Source of the DNA: Chiloscyllium plagiosum
Lineage: Eukaryota
Length of the DNA: 56,383 nt
Assembly (NCBI RefSeq): GCF_004010195.1
Contig: NC_057719.1
Location: 17,118,517 to 17,174,899, forward strand
Direction: 5' to 3'
The position numbers were made by a program, and so were the translations under genes. How positions within the stretch are numbered: the stretch's first letter is position 1; each line of letters begins with the position of its first letter. The notes under the pieces were generated by a model, which was not told where the DNA came from, did no database searches, and worked only from the letters and a program-made list of their open reading frames with translations. This document shows positions 1 through 55,986 of this stretch, in pieces.

Positions 1-131
1 ACCTTTTATCTTAGCCTGCTGGACAAACTTTCCTCATTCCTGAAGAAGGGCTTATGCCCGAAACGTCGATTCTCCTGTTCCCTGGATGCTGCCTGACCTG
101 CTGCGCTTTTCCAGCAACACATTTTCAGCTC
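1..131 (+). mobile_element. Penelope-like element 3'/pLTR end (family A), truncated by window edge
   Basis: cctgaagaagggcttatgcccgaaacgtcgattctcctg...gatgctgcctgacctgctgcgcttttccagca; same motif at 2184-2333, 13116-13274, 36465, 54922. Confidence 0.8.
37..69 (+). ncRNA. Minimal hammerhead ribozyme motif (PLE type), core intact
   Basis: CTGAAGA (40-46), A, GGGC-ttat-GCCC stem II, GAA, ACGT palindrome, C (GUC cleavage triplet), short helix I. Confidence 0.7.
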
Positions 132-1687: not shown

Positions 1688-2183
1688 TTCCTCAGATATG
1701 AGAACGATGAGCAGAAAACTCGATCTTCAATCGATGTGAAAATATTCGGGAAACACAGAGTGAAAACCTGAGCAGCAAACAGACTAATTGCTCACACGGT
1801 GATGCTGAACAAAGCAGATCAATTGTGCTTCAATATCCTTCATTCCCTCATCATGAAGGAAAAATATATCATTTTTTCCAAAGCAAAGTAATTGTGTAAT
1901 CTCTACTTTGGATATTGGGATTTCATGTTAATACAAAAAGGAAGCGGATAGCTCTCACCCACACCAATGAGAGACAGAAGAACTTATTTGCTTGGTTCCA
2001 TCATCAGGGCATGGTTCATGGAGGCTAATTGAGTAGCAGAGTCTCTCATCAATGACAGAGACAACTCAAATTTCAATCGATGACCTTTAAATGGATGAAG
2101 AATTGGACGCCTTCTGTTACTTTCTTACCCTTTCTCACTGATGTTTTCTATGTTTCCCACTGACAATCCAATGCATCCAAGTC

Positions 2184-2360
2184 GAGAGTGTGGTGCTGGA
2201 AAAGCACAGCAGGTCAGGCAGCATCCCAGGAGCAGGAGAATCGCGTTTTGGGCATAAGCCCTTCATCAGGACAGCCTTTTCCTGCTCCTGGGATACTGCC
2301 TGACCTGCTGCGCTTTTCCAGCACCACACTCTCCAGCATCTGCAGTCCTCACTTTCTCCC
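2184..2360. mobile_element. Palindromic PLE-derived unit (family A) with degenerate hammerhead on minus strand
   Basis: Inverted arms spanning 2184-2333; putative 11-bp TSD tgcatccaagt (2172-2182) / tgcagccaagt (2363-2373). Confidence 0.8.
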
Positions 2361-9029: not shown

Positions 9030-10370
9030 TCTTAGATTTTTAGGTTTAGATTTAGATTTTATTGTCAAGTGTACTCAAGTACAGAAATATAGGAGTAAAG
9101 TGAAAAGTGTATGTGTTCACCATTTTAGGTACAAAGGTACAAAACATTTAGGTACAATGTTAACATAACTAAGAAACATAGTTAATATTACAATCCTTCT
9201 TTAAATAAAGTAAAAAAAGGAAGAAAGTTAAACATTCACCAGTCTTTGATGAGTTCTCTGTCCTCTTGCTGTCCGAGAGACCTCAGCTGCCTGTTCTCAG
9301 CGCTGTACAGATACTCTGGGAGACCAAACACTCCAGGCTGAGACACCAACCACGCAGGACTGAGACACTAATCACTGGGCTGAGAAATGGCCATGCAGAC
9401 TGACAGACTGCCGAGACACTAACAACACTGGGCTAAGTGCCCGCAATGTAGGCCGAGAGACCGTAATGCTGGGCCAAGGGATAACTACGCATGGCTGAGA
9501 CACTAACCACTCCGGGCCGAGAGACTGCCACGCCAGGCCAAGAGACCATAACGCTTGGCCAAAAGATGATCACGCCAGGCCAAGATACCAACCACAGTGG
9601 GCCAATATACCAACCACGCTGGGCCAATATACCAACCACGCTGGGCCAAGATACCAACCACACCGGGCTAAGACACCAACCACGCTGGGACAAGACATGA
9701 ACCACGCCAGACCAAGATCCCAGCCACACTGGGCCAAGATACCAACCACGCTGGGCCAAGATACCAACCATGCCAGGCCAAAACACTAACCACTCCAGGC
9801 TGAGACGCCAACCACTCCGGGCTGAGACACCAACCACTCAAGGCTGAGACACCAACCACTCAAGGCTGAAACACCAATCACTCTGGGCTGAGACATCAAC
9901 CATTCAAGGCTGAGACACCAATCACTCTGGGTTGAGACACCAACCATGCAGGGCTGAGACACCAACCCACACGGGCTGAGGCACCTACCACTCCTGGCTG
10001 AGACACCAACACTCCAGGCCAAGACACCAATCACGCCAGGCCGAGACTCTAACCACTCCGGGCTGAGACACCAACCGCTCCTGGCTGAGACACCAACCAC
10101 GCAGGGCCGAGACACCAACCACTCCAGGCCCAGATACTAACCACGCAGGGCCGAGACACCAACCACTCCAGGCCCAGATACTAACCACTCCGGGCTGAGA
10201 CACTAACCACTCCGGGCCCAGATACTAACTACTCCGGGCTGAGATACCAACCATGCAGGGTGAGTCACCAACCATGCCAGGCCAAGAGATCAACTACACC
10301 TGGCCGAGAAACCGTCACGCTGGGCTGAGATACAAACACAGGCTGCCGAAAGACAGGCTGAGACACCAGA
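9030..10370 (-). mobile_element. Non-autonomous composite retroposon: 22-bp VNTR, AT-rich body, Rex1-like 3' tail
   Basis: (tttaga)n tail, ttttattgtcaagtgtac...gtgaaaag end shared with 50915, 32400 and the Rex1 copies; lies wholly inside a CR1. Confidence 0.6.
9320..10370. repeat. 22-bp minisatellite, roughly 45-48 units (consensus about ccgggctgagacaccaaccact)
   Basis: Direct tandem units; exact 44-bp duplication 10097-10140 / 10141-10184. Confidence 0.95.
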
Positions 10371-12094: not shown

Positions 12095-12300
12095 AATAAA
12101 AGCAAAATACTGCAGATGATGGAATCTGAAAGAAGCACAAAAGTCGCTGGAGAAAATGAGCAGGTCTGGCAGAATCTGTGGAGAGAGAAACTCAGTTAAT
12201 GTTTGATATCCAGTATGATTCTTCATATCAAACTTGAAATGTTTACTATTTCTCTCTCCTTGGGTGCTGCCAGGGTTGTTGAATTTCTCCAGCATTTGTT
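12095..12300. mobile_element. Old inverted pair of PLE ends (family C)
   Basis: ctggagaaaatgagcaggtctggcag ... gctgccagggttgttgaatttctccagca. Confidence 0.7.
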
Positions 12301-12402
12301 GTCAATCACCCAGACTGTGCAAAAACAAATCACTGCTATCTATTGATACCTTTCATTCTCATATTTGTGCCACCAAAGGATTGTCTGTTTCAACCTCAAT
12401 AA

Positions 12403-12745
12403 CATAGAGTCACAGAGTCATACAGTACAGTTTGGTCTAACCAGTCCATACTGACCATAGTCCCAAACTAACCTTGTCCCACCTGTCAGCTCCTGGCACA
12501 TATCTCTCCAAACCTTTCCTATTCATGTACTTATCTAAGTGTCTCTTAAACATTGGAACTGAGCCTGCATCCACCACTTCCTCAGGAAGTTTGTTACACA
12601 TACAAACCACCCTGTATGTAAAAAAAATTATCCCTTGGGTGTTTTTTAAGTCTCTCCTCACATTTTAAAAATATTCCTCCAGTCTTGAAATCCCCCATCC
12701 GAGAGAAAGTACACTTACCATTAACCCTATTATATCCCTCATGAA
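12403..12745 (-). mobile_element. CR1/HER1 3' end
   Basis: catagagtca tail; FFTYRVVCMCNKLPEEVVDAGSVPMFKRHLDKYM. Confidence 0.9.
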
Positions 12746-13114
12746 TATGGATGAGACCAAGTAGATTCTATCCTTGACCCCCCAAACCACCATCACCACC
12801 TCCCCCCCCATAAACTCCCTTCCTTATGGCAGTAAAATATTCATCTCAATAAACCTTACTTTCTTTCTTAATCCTTCCTTTCCCTATCTATGCAGAACAC
12901 CTCGAGACTCCAGTCCTGCCCTTTTCTGGAACCAGGTCTCTATTGTTACTGCAATGTTATAATTTCCTTGTGACTGAGTGCACCAACAACTTTCAAACTC
13001 ATCTCCCATATTTCCTGGATTCACATGCCAAAACTGTAAAACTAGCTAAGCCATATTTAAACCACATTAACACCACATACCTTACTGCTTCTTATTTTTA
13101 TATTATCTGACTTA

Positions 13115-13311
13115 TTTCTGGATCAGTGGTGCTGGAAGAGCACAGCAATTCAGGCAGCATCCAAGGACAGGCAAAAGCCCTTCATCAGGAAGGGCTTTTG
13201 CCCGAAACGTCGATTTTGCCTGTCCTCGGATGCTGCCTGAATTGCTGTGCTCTTCCAGCACCACTGATCCAGAATCTGGTTTCCAGCATCTGCAGTCATT
13301 GTTTTTACCTC
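13115..13311. mobile_element. Young palindromic PLE-derived insertion (family A) with 14-bp TSD
   Basis: Near-perfect inverted arms 13116-13274; tattatctgactta at 13101-13114 and 13312-13325. Confidence 0.9.
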
Positions 13312-13586
13312 TATTATCTGACTTACCCAATTCTCGATGTACTTTGTTTTCCCTCTTTAATGTTATGTTCTTGTTCCTTCCCCCTGCCAACATAGTTTAA
13401 ACCCTCTCTAGTAACTCTCTCAAACTGCTCTGCAAACACACTCCCTGCTTCTTTTGAAGAATAATTATTCAGCCTGCATAAATCCCACCTCTCCAAAACC
13501 AGACCCGGTTTTTCAGGAATTTAAAGCCTTCACTCTTGTTCTATCTTTCTACTCATGATATGGAGGTGCTGTTGTTGGACTGGGGT

Positions 13587-14447
13587 CATAGAGTCATAGA
13601 GACATAAAGCACGGAAACCTACCCTTCGCTCCAACCTGTCCATGCCGACCAGATATCCCAACCCAATCTAGTCCCACCTGGCAGCACCTGGCCCATATCC
13701 CTCTAAACCTTTCCTATTCATATACCCATCCAGATGCCTTTTAAATGGTGCAATTGTACTAGCCTCCACCACTTCCTCTGGCAGCTCATTCAAATCAAAT
13801 CCCCAACTATGACGAGTACCACCCTCTGCATAAAAAAGTTGCCCCTTTTGTCTCTTTTATATCTTTCCCCTCTCACCCTAAACCTATGCCCTCTAGTTCT
13901 GGATTCCCCGACCCCAGGGAAGAGACTTTGTCTATTTATCCTATCCATGCCCCTCACGATTTTATAAACCTCTGTAAGGTCACCCCTCAGCCTCCGATGC
14001 TCCAGGGAAAACAGCCCCAGCCTATTCAACCTCTCCCTATAGCTCAATTCCTTCAACTCTGCCAACACTCTTGTAAATCCTTTCTGAACCCTTTCAAGTT
14101 TCACAACATCTTTCCGATAGAAGGAGACCAGAATTGCACGAAATATACCAACACGGCCTAACCAATGTCCTGTACAGCCGCACCATGACCTCCCAGCTCC
14201 TGTACTTAATAATCTGACCAATAAAGCAAAACATACCAAACGCCTTCCTCACTATCCTATCTACCTGTCACTCCACTTACAAGGAGCTACAAACCTGCAC
14301 TCCAAGGTCTCTTTGTTCAGCAACACTCCCTAGGACCTTACCATTAAGCGTATAAGTCCTGCTAAGATTTGCATTCCCAAAATGCAGCACCTCGCATTTA
14401 TCTGAATTAAACTCCATCTGCCACTTCTCAGTCCATTGGCCCATCTT
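13587..14447 (-). mobile_element. CR1/HER1 LINE, 5'-truncated, young
   Basis: YRKDVVKLERVQKGFTR...RRLRGDLTEVYKIVRGMDR...RTRGHRFRVRGER; (catagagt)n tail. Confidence 0.95.
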
Positions 14448-14577
14448 TGTACAAAGTTAAAAATCACACAACATCAGGTTATAGTCCAACAGGTTTATTT
14501 GGAAGCACTAGCTTTCGGAGCACACCCCTGTACCAACCACGTCCTCTTACACTTGCCCCTACTCTTTGCAAAACAAC

Positions 14578-14612
14578 CACCTGATGAAAGAGCAGCGCTC
14601 CGAAAGCTAGTG
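14578..14612 (+). ncRNA. Minimal hammerhead ribozyme motif (family B)
   Basis: cac-CTGATGA-aa-GAGC-agc-GCTC-c-GAA-AGCT-A-gtg; helix I cac/gtg; mismatch at base of stem II. Confidence 0.6.
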
Positions 14613-15058
14613 CTTCCAAATAAACCTGTTGGACTATAACCTGGTATTGCGTGATTTTTTAACTCCATCCTCCTCGCCACACATTCATCTATGCCAACCA
14701 CCAATATCTGTGCTCACCAGCCTGTAGCATTGGGACTAATCCAGAGATTATTATCTTTTAAGTATCCAGCTTGCTGGGTTCTTTCCTAAACTCCATAAGA
14801 TCTGCATAAGGCACTCATCTACCTATGTGGTCATTTTCAACATGGGTGAATCCTCACTGGAAATCAAGCCCTGTCATTCCTAGAGTTGTGAAAAATGTTA
14901 AACACTTTATCAAAGTATGCAAAATTCTCAACTTACCAGCTCAGGTCACTGTACATAACTATGATTTATAACAAATAAATAGATTCTAACCACATGCAAG
15001 CAATAATGAACTGCCATATAAATCTGCTAGTTAAAACTCTGAGCTCTTTCTAACCAGA

Positions 15059-17058: not shown

Positions 17059-17789
17059 GAGGGAAGATTTTTCACAATCATCATTTATCCATCAGAAGAT
17101 ATCTTATCATCTCCCCATTCTAGAATCTAGTTACTTCTGATATGATTGCAGGGTTCCTGTTGCCTTTCATACATCGATGATGCGTTGTCACTGATCTTCA
17201 TCCTCTGTGCCTGGTAGTAATGGGGCAGTAATGGCGCTGCCAGTCTTCTTGCATCATTGTAGCTGGCTCCATTGTCAAAGGAACCTATTATCACATGATA
17301 AAGTTCCTTTAATATGGAAATAGATGCTCTCCAATATTAATGAGCCTGCAAACCTTCCTAACATACACTCATGGCCGGTAGTAAGAGCAGGAGAGGTTCC
17401 TGATCAGCTATGTGAAAGCAAGAACATTGGAACAGTAAATAACTATTCAAAGATGCAGACTGCAACATGCACCTAGAGGTCTACATTGCCACAGCAGACA
17501 TGGACTGCCTGAGCAGTCAAGAACCAGACCATGTAAATCGGACCCCAATTTCCATTTTGTTCAGAGCAAAGGTAATTCCATGGAATTGTTGAGCTGTATT
17601 CATGGGTCCCAAAGTATTAGGAATATTCAATACCCTTTTTAGTTTTGCTGATTACTGTTTGGACATGTTAAGCATTGGATCTGTTAAGTCTCAGAGATTT
17701 CTCCTGATCTTGATAGTAGGAACTACATCAGTGACTTTAAAAGCAGATATATCTTCTGCTGGAATAACAGCAAAATATTGCTCACTCTT

Positions 17790-18000
17790 GAAATCTGGAG
17801 AATACTGGAGAAACTCAGCAGGTCTAGGAGCATCTGTGGAGAGAGAAATATAGCTAACATTTGAAAGCTGGTCTGACCCTTCTTCAGACCGCAAGTTTTA
17901 AACAAAAATCATGTGGATCTCAAAGCATCAACTCAGTTTCTCTCTCCATAGATGCTGCCAGTCCTGTTGAGTTTCTCCGGCATTTTCTATATTTGTTTCA
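17790..18000. mobile_element. Inverted pair of PLE ends (family C)
   Basis: ctggagaaactcagcaggtc...gacccttcttcaga ... gatgctgccagtcctgttgagtttctccggca. Confidence 0.75.
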
Positions 18001-18244
18001 TATTGTCTGTTGAATTAGCCAATGTAATGATTTGCATTTTTCCCTTTAGCTTTTCGATCTTATGTCCAGAATGATAGGTGTCAAAAATGAATTTCTCTAC
18101 TTGCATGCCATGGTATGTGTGGGACAATAGCACAGATCTGGCTATGACTTACAACCTATTTTGGTTAATCCACTTAGAAAGACTTTATTGACTGTTCTTG
18201 TTAGTGCAGCACCCAATGTTCCATCGGATAAATATTTTAAAAAA

Positions 18245-26690: not shown

Positions 26691-26849
26691 AAGCTTTGTT
26701 AGCCTAACAATGATTCTTACAAAAGTACAGTGGAGACTGAATGCAGTGAGATTGAGTGTTTGAATCTGGAAACCCAGACTGTATTCCGCCTTACTCATCT
26801 AGATGGGTGAATGCTTTGCTGAACACTGATATTCTCTATGTAAAAATAA

Positions 26850-27405
26850 CCCGGTGCATCCAGTTGCCTGCCATTACAACACACTGCCATGTTCTCTGCC
26901 TAACACTGGGCTCGCTGCAGTGTTCCAGAGAAGCTCACTGCAAGCTGGAGAAACAGCATCTCATCTTCCACTTGGAGCCTTTAGCACTCAATACCAATAT
27001 CAGTAATGTTAAAGCCGCTGTTCATATCCTTTACCTTCCCTACACTCCAGCTCCTGTCATGACATGGGGTGCTTTCAGCCCAGCCAATCTATTTTCATCT
27101 ACTCACTAACCCCTTTATCAGGTTTTCTTCTTCCCTGGCTCACTATCAGCCATCGCTTAGTCTGCCTGACCTTCCCTTTCTCTGCTTGGACTCTGTCTCC
27201 ACCTATCGGCTCACTCCTTTGCCCTCCACCTCCTGTCATCAGCATTTATACTGCCTTTTCCTAGTTATTATCAGGTCTGAAGAACAGTCAGTGGACCCAA
27301 AAGGTTAACTCTGTTTTCTCTCCACAGATGTTGCCAGACCTGCTGAGTTTCTCCAGCAATTTCTGTTTTTGCTTCAGGTCTTCAGTATCCGCAGTTCTTT
27401 GTCTT
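26850..27405 (+). mobile_element. Penelope-like element: GIY-YIG C-terminus, 3' UTR and degenerate hammerhead
   Basis: LGSLQCSREAHCKLEKQHLIFHL; tctgaagaacagtcagtggacccaaaaggttaac at about 27277. Confidence 0.85.
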
Positions 27406-27406
27406 A

Positions 27407-27717
27407 TTAGATTAGATTATATTACAGTGTGGAAACAGGCCCTTTGGCCCAACAAGTCCACACCGACCCGCCGAAGCGCAACCCACCCAGACCCATTCCC
27501 CTACATTTACCCCTTCACCTAACACTACCGGCAATTTAGCATGGCCACTTCACCTAACCTGCACAGTTATTGGATTGTGGGAGGAAACCGGAGCACCTGG
27601 AGGAAACCCACGCAGACACGGGGAGAATGCGCAAACTCCACACACAGAGTCGCCTGAGGCGGGAATCAAACCCAGGTCTCTGGCGCTATGAGGCAGCAGT
27701 GCTAACCACTGTGCCAA
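27407..27717 (-). mobile_element. HE1 SINE
   Basis: Canonical structure. Confidence 0.93.
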
Positions 27718-38495: not shown

Positions 38496-38959
38496 CCTCT
38501 ATCTACTTTAACATTTGTTCTGAACTGGTTTCCATGTGGTTTGGGAGCAAATTTTAATCAGTCACAAAAGGGACCACTGTCTGAGCCAGAGTCAGTAGGA
38601 AATACTGAGAGAAAAAGTGAATGAGAGTGAAAAAAGATATTGGACTCAAAATCACTAGGACACACTGCTGCAGTGTTCTAGACTATTAGGGGATCTGGAC
38701 AAACAATAATACAAAACAAGATGTTAAGCTAAACAACAGTTCACTTCATAATCAATCCTCAGCAGCCACCAAAAATCCAAAATCTACTGTTATTTAGCAG
38801 ACTTGAGGCCTGATTAGAAACCAATGGCAATGCATCTCTGTAGAGTTCCAGACAACCAAGGGATGTTATCACTTTTCACCTCTTGACTGACCAAAACCAG
38901 ATGTATTTTTAAAAATAAAAATTTTACTATTCAGGTACTGTAAAAGAACAGGCAAATAA

Positions 38960-39185
38960 AAGAAAAATACTGTGGATGCTAAAAATCTGAAATGACAACA
39001 GAGAAATTCATCAGGTCTGGCCTCATCTGCAGAAGAAAAGAAAAATGGAGTCAATGTTTTGAGTCCCACAGCACTTGATCAGAACTGTTCAGAAGTTGTG
39101 TCATTGGATTTAAAAAGTTATTGTTGCTTCTCTTTCCAAAGATGCTGCTAGAGCTGCTGAGTTTCTCCAGCACTTTCTGTTTTTA
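38960..39185. mobile_element. Old inverted pair of PLE ends (family C)
   Basis: tcaggtctggcctcatctgcag ... gatgctgctagagctgctgagtttctccagca. Confidence 0.65.
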
Positions 39186-47606: not shown

Positions 47607-47822
47607 TGATGTGAAGGTGCCAGTGTAGGACTGGGATGGTCAAACTTAAAAATCACACAATACCAGGTTATAGTCCAATAGGTTTATTTGGAAAAACAGC
47701 TTTCGGAGCGTAACTCTTTCATTAGGTAACTAGCTACCTGATGAAGGAGCAGCGCTCCTAAAGTTAGTACTTCCAAATAGACCTGTTGGACTATAACATG
47801 ATGTTGTGTGAGTTTTAACTTA
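47607..47822. mobile_element. Palindromic PLE-derived unit (family B), degenerate hammerheads on both strands
   Basis: aaaatcacacaataccaggttatagtcca...ctttcggagcg / cctgatgaaggagcagcgctcctaaag...ggactataacatgatgttgtgtga. Confidence 0.85.
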
Positions 47823-54750: not shown

Positions 54751-54921
54751 AAATAGCACTGCTTGTGGGTGGGGGATTTCATATGGCTCTTCATATAGTT
54801 GAACACAAATCTAGTTGTGAATCTGTAAGAAGGAACATTAATAAAGTGACAAAGTTCACCACAAAAGGCTGGGTGATAATAACATTAGATGCTGACTGAT
54901 ATAACAAACTAGGCAGAAGTG

Positions 54922-55010
54922 GGTACTGCAAATGCTGGAGATTAGAGTCAAGATTAGAGTGGTGCTGGAAAAGCACAGCAGGTCAGGCAGCATTCGAGGA
55001 GCAGGAAAAT
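54922..55010 (-). mobile_element. PLE end fragment (family A)
   Basis: gagtggtgctggaaaagcacagcaggtcaggcagcattcgaggagcagg. Confidence 0.8.
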
Positions 55011-55986
55011 CCTCATTTTCCTAATATCACAAACTACCCACGCAGTACACTTTCAATGCTTACACAGAATATCTGTACTATTGCTCTCTTTAACATGACA
55101 GCTGGTATTTGCCATGCTAAAAGAGGTTGGGAATTAATAGCTCCAACCAACCCTCACCAATATTCATCTTCACCAGATTTCGGAGTGGCTGCACTACTGA
55201 ATTTAACTTTGCAAACAGTATTTTTATCCTTAATTTCCATTTTCATTAAGATGTAATAAGCTTGTGCTGGATAAGGAACTAATGCACCGTCCTTCGTGCT
55301 TGGAGTCAACACCACAAACTAAAAGGATGCAATAGCCATCACATATAACAGATAACAGCAAACCAAAACGGCTGTGCTTTTAGGCTGTGATTGGGATTGT
55401 GGCCACTGCTAGCAGAGTATCAGTGGCTAATTACCTGCTTCAAACTGCATTGGACCTGATCTAGGAAGACTAATGCAGAAAAGGTGCTGGGTGTAAAGCT
55501 GAGTAAAGTGTCCCACATTCTCTCTCACTATCATCCCTCACCCTGAGTAAATAATATTCACCAAAAGTTTACAAGGAAGTTATCGTGTATCATCAAAGAA
55601 GAATCAAACAGAAAATTCAAATCAGTAAAAACCTTAATCTCCTAATCTCCATAATTTTACATCACATCCCACCATGATAGTTTTAAAATTATAATTACAT
55701 TTAAACTACAGATCAAATATAATGAGAGGCAATTTTTACTGAAAGCCCGGTATTTATATAGTTAAGAATTGTAGGAGGAGAATTGTTGAGTAACATAGTC
55801 AAGATAAATTGAATGATCTAAAGAGAAAATATCAATAATTATTTTGTGTTTGTTCATGATGCCCAACAATAGAAAAAAACCTACTTGAGATTATTCAAAA
55901 GCTCAATCGGTCTCACTAGGTTATCCCTTGAGCTGAATATTCCCATGAAGTACAATGGAACATCTTGAATCAGGAACAAGTCAAAT

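Follow-up and report, generated by a model that had tools for sequence, protein, structure and literature searches.

Results

A palindromic insertion with a one-sided tail

The window analyzed here is the whole 56,383-nt stretch of the Chiloscyllium plagiosum genome (NC_057719.1, positions 17,118,517 to 17,174,899). It is repeat-rich and has a G+C content of about 41%. The insertion under study and its relatives in the window are listed in Table 1. A perfect 14-mer was found exactly twice in the whole window, at 13101-13114 and 13312-13325, and the insert between these copies of the target-site duplication (TSD) is 197 bp long (13115-13311). Outside a tandem array at 9571-10345, this was the sole perfect 14-mer in the window to recur 150-260 nt downstream. 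The array itself is composed of a 22-bp unit in about 35 copies with 77% matches and a 66-bp higher period. Two inverted arms of 61 nt each (13116-13176 and 13214-13274) lie within the insert and are identical at 60 of 61 positions, in agreement with the initial annotation, which had described a perfect 14-bp TSD around near-perfect inverted arms. The only mismatch is TCG versus TTG, a difference that would fit CpG decay after insertion. The right arm is followed by an unpaired tail of 37 nt (13275-13311), and the arms are thus asymmetric about the TSD. This tail had not been mentioned in the initial annotation. In the sense of the element, a probable Penelope-like element (PLE), the right half is a tail-bearing direct copy starting with GAAGGGC at 13189, and the left half is an inverted copy that has no tail and reaches just past CTGATGA.

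Table 1. Parts of the focal insertion and related copies in the window
Feature	Position	Strand	Remarks
Family-A direct end with complete hammerhead core (~40-63)	25-130	+	Truncated by the window start
Family-A hairpin with a different centre	2183-2358	+	Near-complete hammerhead on minus; direct arm from about the cut site; right tail; 15-bp TSD with 2 mismatches
Old family-C hairpin	12095-12302		42-nt left tail
Left TSD copy, 14 bp	13101-13114		AT-rich target, 74% A+T over 13080-13114; single copy at the organism B empty site
Inverted, tail-less copy of the element end	13115-13191	-	On minus, runs from just upstream of CTGATGA to the boundary between arm and tail
Single GGCAAAA left by the 18-nt loss between two such repeats	13170-13176	+	Alignment; intact form in 18,224 loose-end reads at 13167
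Hammerhead CTGATGA box	13182-13188	-	Minus only; pattern scan
Head-to-head junction with 3-nt GAA microhomology	13189-13191	+	Comparison with a plain copy at 28-70; loose-end consensus before 13189 (21,259 reads)
Direct end copy with its 5' truncation within the hammerhead	13189-13274	+	Stem II 13192-13203; GAAAC 13204-13208; GTC 13209-13211; paired arm 13214-13274
One-sided 37-nt 3' tail, the PLE "tail" signature	13275-13311	+	Tails of 30-40 bp known from the accessible text of PMC3846280, PMC8557442 and PMC11167929
Right TSD copy, 14 bp	13312-13325		Repeat search plus read and contig evidence
Family-B hairpin with complete core on plus (~14580-14605) and ~57-nt spacer	14449-14662	+	Tail 13557-13587, separated by an 861-bp repeat
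Old family-C hairpin	17765-18003		Left tail
Old, strongly decayed family-C hairpin	38955-39185		Left tail
Family-B near-symmetric hairpin	47607-47821		Decayed hammerhead motif on both strands; 36-nt left tail
Family-A copy with a single arm that bears a tail and has its end at the hammerhead cut site	54912-55020	-	Followed by a 6-7-bp mini fold-back; degenerate TSD of 13-16 bp with 1-2 mismatches

The split hammerhead is a defect of one copy

Pattern scans of both strands confirmed the earlier observation that the halves of a hammerhead motif sit on opposite strands. The plus strand reads GGGC-TTTT-GCCC-GAAAC-GTC at 13192-13211 and has no CTGATGA, while the minus strand has CTGATGA at 13188-13182 and stem II but no GAAAC after them. 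CTGATGA is missing on the plus strand because of the head-to-head junction, where the inverted copy ends and the direct copy starts on a GAA common to both. GAAAC-GTC is missing on the minus strand because of an 18-nt loss from the left half. With these nucleotides the minus-strand motif lost its GAAAC and its GTC cut site, and the intact 18-nt stretch is carried by 18,224 family reads. This loss was either a template slip in reverse transcription or later replication slippage. The split was seen in only one of the seven two-armed units of the window, and two microhomology events explain it. It is therefore a copy-specific defect, and the meaning that the initial annotation had attached to it was not upheld.

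Computed folding gave a full plain duplex for the two focal strands together (-421 kcal/mol) and a long hairpin for each strand alone, with -139 to -143 kcal/mol for the hairpin transcript. No hammerhead match was found in Rfam with E values up to 1. Three Rfam matches to microRNA hairpins were rejected, as they were weak, far below the gathering scores and attributable to generic hairpin similarity.

The orthologous site is empty in a relative

Reads and contigs from four runs (X14, X15, X20 and X23), out of the 24 listed for 12700-13556, were compared. Record 17 of X20 (organism B), a contig of 907 nt with a depth of 3.2 and about 96% identity to the window, matches 12701-13100 at its bases 368-775 and 13312-13556 at its bases 124-367. 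The two pieces are contiguous (367/368), and thus 211 bases (197 + 14) are skipped and one TSD copy is kept. Record 8 of X14 (organism C) matches 13312-13554 from its base 81. Its depth of 4.93 equals that of the bin 13048-13076, and the bin 13077-13105 reads 4.08, which is the value expected if the contig ended at 13100. The left piece of this contig is not among the matches listed, and the depth arithmetic points to a probable second empty site in organism C. Both empty-site contigs are shallow (depths of 3.2 and 4.9), and X23 has nearly no coverage of the flanks. Record 16 of X15 (organism A, from another study) spans the right junction over 13290-13556 with zero differences. A contig of organism C (X14) also has a 14-nt AT-rich insertion relative to the window at 12952, seen at a depth of 2.4 in one contig.

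Since organism B, and probably organism C, has a single TSD copy and no insert at the orthologous site, the 197 bp and the 14-bp duplication arrived in a single recent event, after organism A split from B and C. Insertion as one event had been claimed in the initial annotation, which had also proposed a search for empty orthologous sites. The claim was borne out, and the search succeeded by direct observation in organism B and probably, by depth arithmetic, in organism C.

Seven hairpins of three families

Seven two-armed units were identified in the window, in addition to single-armed copies. They fall into three terminal families: A (2183 and the focal unit at 13115), B (14455 and 47607) and C (12095, 17790 and 38960). 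The recurrences noted earlier at 2184, 14455, 47607, 12095, 17790 and 38960 are thus real hairpins, but they represent three terminal families and not one. A tail is present on exactly one arm in all seven units. It is 36-42 nt long in the units at 13115, 47607 and 12095, about 36 nt in the unit at 14455 when an 861-bp insert is allowed for, and 10-25 nt in the hairpins at 2183, 17765 and 38955. The centres lie in or at the hammerhead region in every case and differ in all seven; none of the six others matches the focal centre. This base-by-base examination covered the seven hairpins, two of which belong to focal family A.

For the unit at 2184, previously assigned an 11-bp TSD, a 15-bp duplication with 2 mismatches (2168-2182 and 2359-2373) is the better reading. 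The TSDs of three family-A copies are 14 bp, 15 bp (2 mismatches) and 13-16 bp (1-2 mismatches). Convincing TSDs were not found at the five family-B and family-C hairpins, where the top candidates were imperfect direct repeats of 8-13 bp. The family-B hairpin at 14449-14662 predates the 861-bp repeat at 13588-14448, since the repeat splits it, separating its tail from its body. This repeat has seven further matches in the window, and we take it to be the end of a CR1-type LINE. The spacer of about 57 nt between the arms of this hairpin (14522-14578) matches neither arm and was possibly captured at the junction.

As rough values that include junction columns, arm likeness in family B was 0.84 and 0.79 within units and 0.84 between units, and in family C it was 0.53-0.65 within units and 0.66 between units. 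The old units show no sign of their arms being kept alike. More single-armed copies of families A and C are found at 950, 3918, 24760, 27270, 36460, 42715 and 48470. The start of several single-armed copies falls on or close to the CTGA box or stem II, and truncation points seem clustered at the hammerhead. Also, the arm of the copy at 54912-55020 ends at the predicted cut site and the direct arm of the unit at 2183 starts at about that site, a possible sign of cleaved templates.

Few reads fit the whole focal unit

The X23 sample comprised 1,934 million letters, and its reads were matched to the stretch at 85% likeness. Of the 85,314 reads that matched, 176 fit the whole and 85,138 fit partly, with 21,259 departing at 13189 and 18,224 at 13167 into other sequence. 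The summed arm depth of about 73,000 gives an estimated 95,000-170,000 arm copies for an assumed genome of 2.5-4.5 Gb. If all 176 whole-fit reads shared the focal architecture, they would represent about 700-1,300 copies, or about 0.75% of the arms, which is an upper bound for a hairpin family and is compatible with a small copying family. Both focal arms carry the same minority subfamily letters, and 93-95% of the reads differ from them at 13148-13149.

The joints shown (15 of 301) were, artefacts apart, varied and low in count. Two of them, 13191>13275 and 13191>13278, were present in all four runs, and so the centres are not all unique genome-wide. These recurrent joints could mark hot spots at the boundary of the tail, or they could stem from shared insertions of some age or from small families. 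The 13191-13278 joints run from the end of the inverted arm to the tail boundary, as if a long inverted arm were combined with a tail-only direct part. The "opposite strands" joints 13167>13213/13215 and 13126>13275 were rejected as hairpin junctions, being ordinary family reads across both arms. A leftward crossing of the focal centre was seen in 0 of the 24 contig pieces listed, which come from a set with 58,781 more and from an assembly type, short-read contigs, that breaks at hairpins.

Since the centres differ in all seven hairpins and only 176 of 85,314 reads fit the whole unit, the hairpins were most likely built anew at each insertion. Of the two options in the initial annotation, a non-autonomous hairpin class and a habitual fold-back product of PLE reverse transcription, the second was supported as far as a habitual product is concerned, while an amplifying class found little support at best, at no more than about 0.75% of the arms. 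The comparison of inversion breakpoints that it had proposed gave a mixed answer: they are unique in all seven window hairpins, yet two joints recur in all four runs.

Coding capacity of the window

No Pfam match to an RT or GIY-YIG domain was found in the 70 stop-to-stop frames of at least 90 aa in the whole window. Two sub-threshold Pfam matches among these frames were rejected, and none was above threshold. A 56-aa stop-free frame on the plus strand (26849-27016), which we take to resemble the C-terminus of a PLE GIY-YIG endonuclease, lies about 250 nt upstream of the family-C copy at 27268-27410. Sequence searches with this frame gave no homologue, its atlas scores were at most 0.80 and there was no meaningful PDB match. 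Two HMMER matches, to a tandem-repeat protein and a PPR protein, were rejected as spurious. None of these searches tied an RT or GIY-YIG ORF to the focal family.

Discussion

Proposed integration by two converging cDNAs

We consider it highly probable that an endonuclease-bearing (EN+) PLE gave rise to the focal unit through an insertion that was extremely 5'-truncated and dead on arrival, and that the hairpin was built during integration. No function is expected of this copy. On each strand, the 3' end of the flank is followed directly by antisense element sequence, which starts at the tail end on the minus strand and 36-37 nt further in on the plus strand. In the scheme that we propose, the element protein would nick both target strands 14 nt apart, and the two free 3' ends would then serve as primers, each starting reverse transcription from one of two internal sites. 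The resulting cDNAs would both stop at the hammerhead region, and the converging cDNAs would anneal by microhomology, here the 3-nt GAA, followed by fill-in. Overall, the likeliest mechanism, which we regard as an even bet, is that of two cDNAs converging from two nicked target strands and meeting at the hammerhead. The wider proposal, that PLE integration is two-sided, with both nicked strands priming at the two start sites and the cDNAs joined where they stalled at the hammerhead, is offered tentatively, at a little short of even. Alternatively, the palindrome may once have been fuller, with the present junction left by a deletion that later struck its centre.

The activities described for the anole PLE protein in the accessible text of PMC11167929 include cleavage and extension of both target strands, two internal start sites with a spacing equal to the tail and a bias toward AT-rich DNA. 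The protein uses mainly uncleaved RNA and is a predicted dimer. In that text, the two-strand extension observed in vitro is not linked to inverted repeats, and the accessible portions of PMC11167929, PMC3846280 and PMC8557442 do not state two-sided priming as a cause of PLE inversions. A combined search for Penelope, twin priming and inverted gave no such link in the literature covered. No published account of such mini hairpins was found there either, which is weak evidence since subscription papers and repeat databases lie mostly outside that search.

The main competitor also has the hairpin made at each insertion, through fold-back. The cDNA would run from the tail inward, and its 3' end would snap back and prime a copy of itself. 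That copy would be trimmed short of the tail by endonuclease resolution or repair, with the centre cut by deletion then or later. Self-priming is argued for in the accessible text of PMC3846280, and "EN-mediated resolution" is proposed for the tail in that of PMC8557442. The 54912 copy, with its 6-7-bp fold-back at the truncation point, fits self-priming better than two cDNAs. The arms of the focal unit, which are 60/61 identical with the same minority subfamily letters, are also as fold-back would make them, but shared letters are equally expected if both cDNAs derive from one transcript. Moreover, the left arm holds CTGATGA sequence that is absent from the tailed arm, and fold-back would thus need an extra deletion. 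The self-copy would also have to end at the boundary of the tail, something that the two RT start sites measured account for directly. On this evidence we find fold-back less likely than two cDNAs, but a serious competitor. Copying of a ready-made hairpin is clearly less probable still. Here, the 197-bp unit would be transcribed and re-inserted in trans by PLE proteins, and its junction would be inherited. The unit does keep the tail needed as the RT start, pLTRs alone can mobilize DNA in trans according to the accessible text of PMC3846280, some joints recur in all four runs and the read bound leaves room for up to about 700-1,300 copies in an assumed 2.5-4.5 Gb genome. However, the centre is common to none of the six other window hairpins, whole-unit fits make up just 176 of the 85,314 reads and, as a weak point, no listed contig piece of the 24 crosses the centre leftwards. 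A transcript that folds at -139 to -143 kcal/mol would also likely be a poor RT template.

Two further explanations are very improbable. MITEs are cut-and-paste DNA transposons that are non-autonomous and carry terminal inverted repeats, and a MITE would likewise be short and non-coding, with inverted arms, a TSD and a very high copy number. The inverted repeat is not terminal here, however, as one arm is inset by 37 nt, and single-armed 5'-truncated copies are common in the window. DDE transposases give short TSDs of fixed length, whereas those of the three family-A copies vary (14, 15 and 13-16 bp). We give marginally less credence yet to a functional bipartite ribozyme or a selected dsRNA or cruciform device, in which sense and antisense transcripts would each supply half a hammerhead. 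The two halves do sit on opposite strands, and minimal hammerheads of metazoans have been proposed to act as dimers (accessible text of PMC4209133). Against this, six of the seven units lack the split, with a complete core on plus at 14455 and a near-complete one on minus at 2183. The focal strands would also pair into the full duplex or fold singly into hairpins, the site is empty in two relatives (seen in organism B and probable in organism C) and, by the rough likeness values, the arms of old units are no more alike than those of different units.

Significance

The focal copy itself is unremarkable. It shows a known PLE insertion layout in a clean and young form, and its presence or absence can serve as a marker to separate organism A from its relatives. 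What gives it value is its bearing on how PLEs produce their inverted ends and tails. With exact junctions, a perfect TSD and an orthologous site that is empty, this 197-bp insertion comes close to a minimal integration product, and thousands of such units would separate fold-back from two-sided priming by genome data alone. If two-sided priming is true, it would account jointly for the inverted pLTR, the one-sided tail and the TSD, and it could be tested on the order of 100,000 products that the genome itself would supply, with close relatives providing the empty sites. There is also a risk of such units being wrongly filed as MITEs or as microRNA hairpins, as the three weak Rfam matches illustrate.

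Comparison with known systems

Possible parallels are palindromic Penelope-derived repeats, such as Chompy and Penelope1_Vert, of crocodilians and other vertebrates. Beyond one table row, these leads found no confirmation in the literature searched. Family pattern scans of genome, viral and metagenome contig collections gave 0 matches; animal DNA is not expected in those collections, and the result is thus uninformative on range.

The non-LTR retrozymes (accessible text of bioRxiv 10.64898/2026.07.22.740005) are similar to the present units in being short, non-coding and hammerhead-bearing, and they are proposed to be PLE-derived. They form head-to-tail tandem units with working hammerheads and circular RNAs, whereas the focal unit is dispersed and head-to-head, with a broken core and no tandem array at the locus. 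The minimal hammerheads of metazoan PLEs described in the accessible text of PMC4209133 have CTGA(N)GA, stem II and GAAAC-GTC without a helix III loop, as do the intact copies at 25-130 and ~14580-14605. Pairs of such motifs occur there on opposite strands 100-700 bp apart. Unlike those motifs, the focal copy has no complete core on either strand.

In the accessible text of PMC3846280 and PMC8557442, complex insertions of EN+ PLEs consist of a direct pLTR, an adjoining inverted 5'-truncated copy and a one-sided tail of 30-40 bp. PMC8557442 presents the pattern of inverted copy and tail as general to EN+ PLEs. In the rotifer PLEs of PMC3846280, the inverted pLTR is 37 bp shorter, with an optional 31-bp tail and a TSD. 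Judged by its sequence, the focal unit looks like a truncated EN+ PLE insertion on every anatomical test, with the known layout in miniature, and its PLE membership rests on this anatomy. An inverted 5'-truncated end copy stands head to head with a direct copy, and the 37-nt tail is one-sided and within 30-40 bp. The TSD lies in an AT-rich target and is single at the empty site. The minimal hammerhead motif is present, with complete cores in the family copies at 40-63 and ~14580-14605 and a broken core in the focal copy by pattern scan. As far as the accessible sources go, the inverted copy is shorter by the tail in both cases (by 36-37 nt in the focal unit and by 37 bp in rotifer Pen2a, where the tail is 31 bp), and the palindromic junction, the TSD and microhomology deletions are shared as well. 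The differences are that both focal copies are cut to the terminal 80-120 nt with no ORF between them, that the TSD is 14 bp compared to 8-10 bp in the rotifer examples (accessible text of PMC3846280), and that the arms here number an estimated ~100,000.

An experimental parallel in layout is Poseidon of Anolis carolinensis (PAc). In the accessible text of PMC11167929, PAc shares with the present units two 3' end points one tail apart, an AT-rich target, a hammerhead motif about 100-120 nt upstream of the 3' end and a mostly uncleaved template. The likeness is one of layout, as the present family is known from its end sequence alone.
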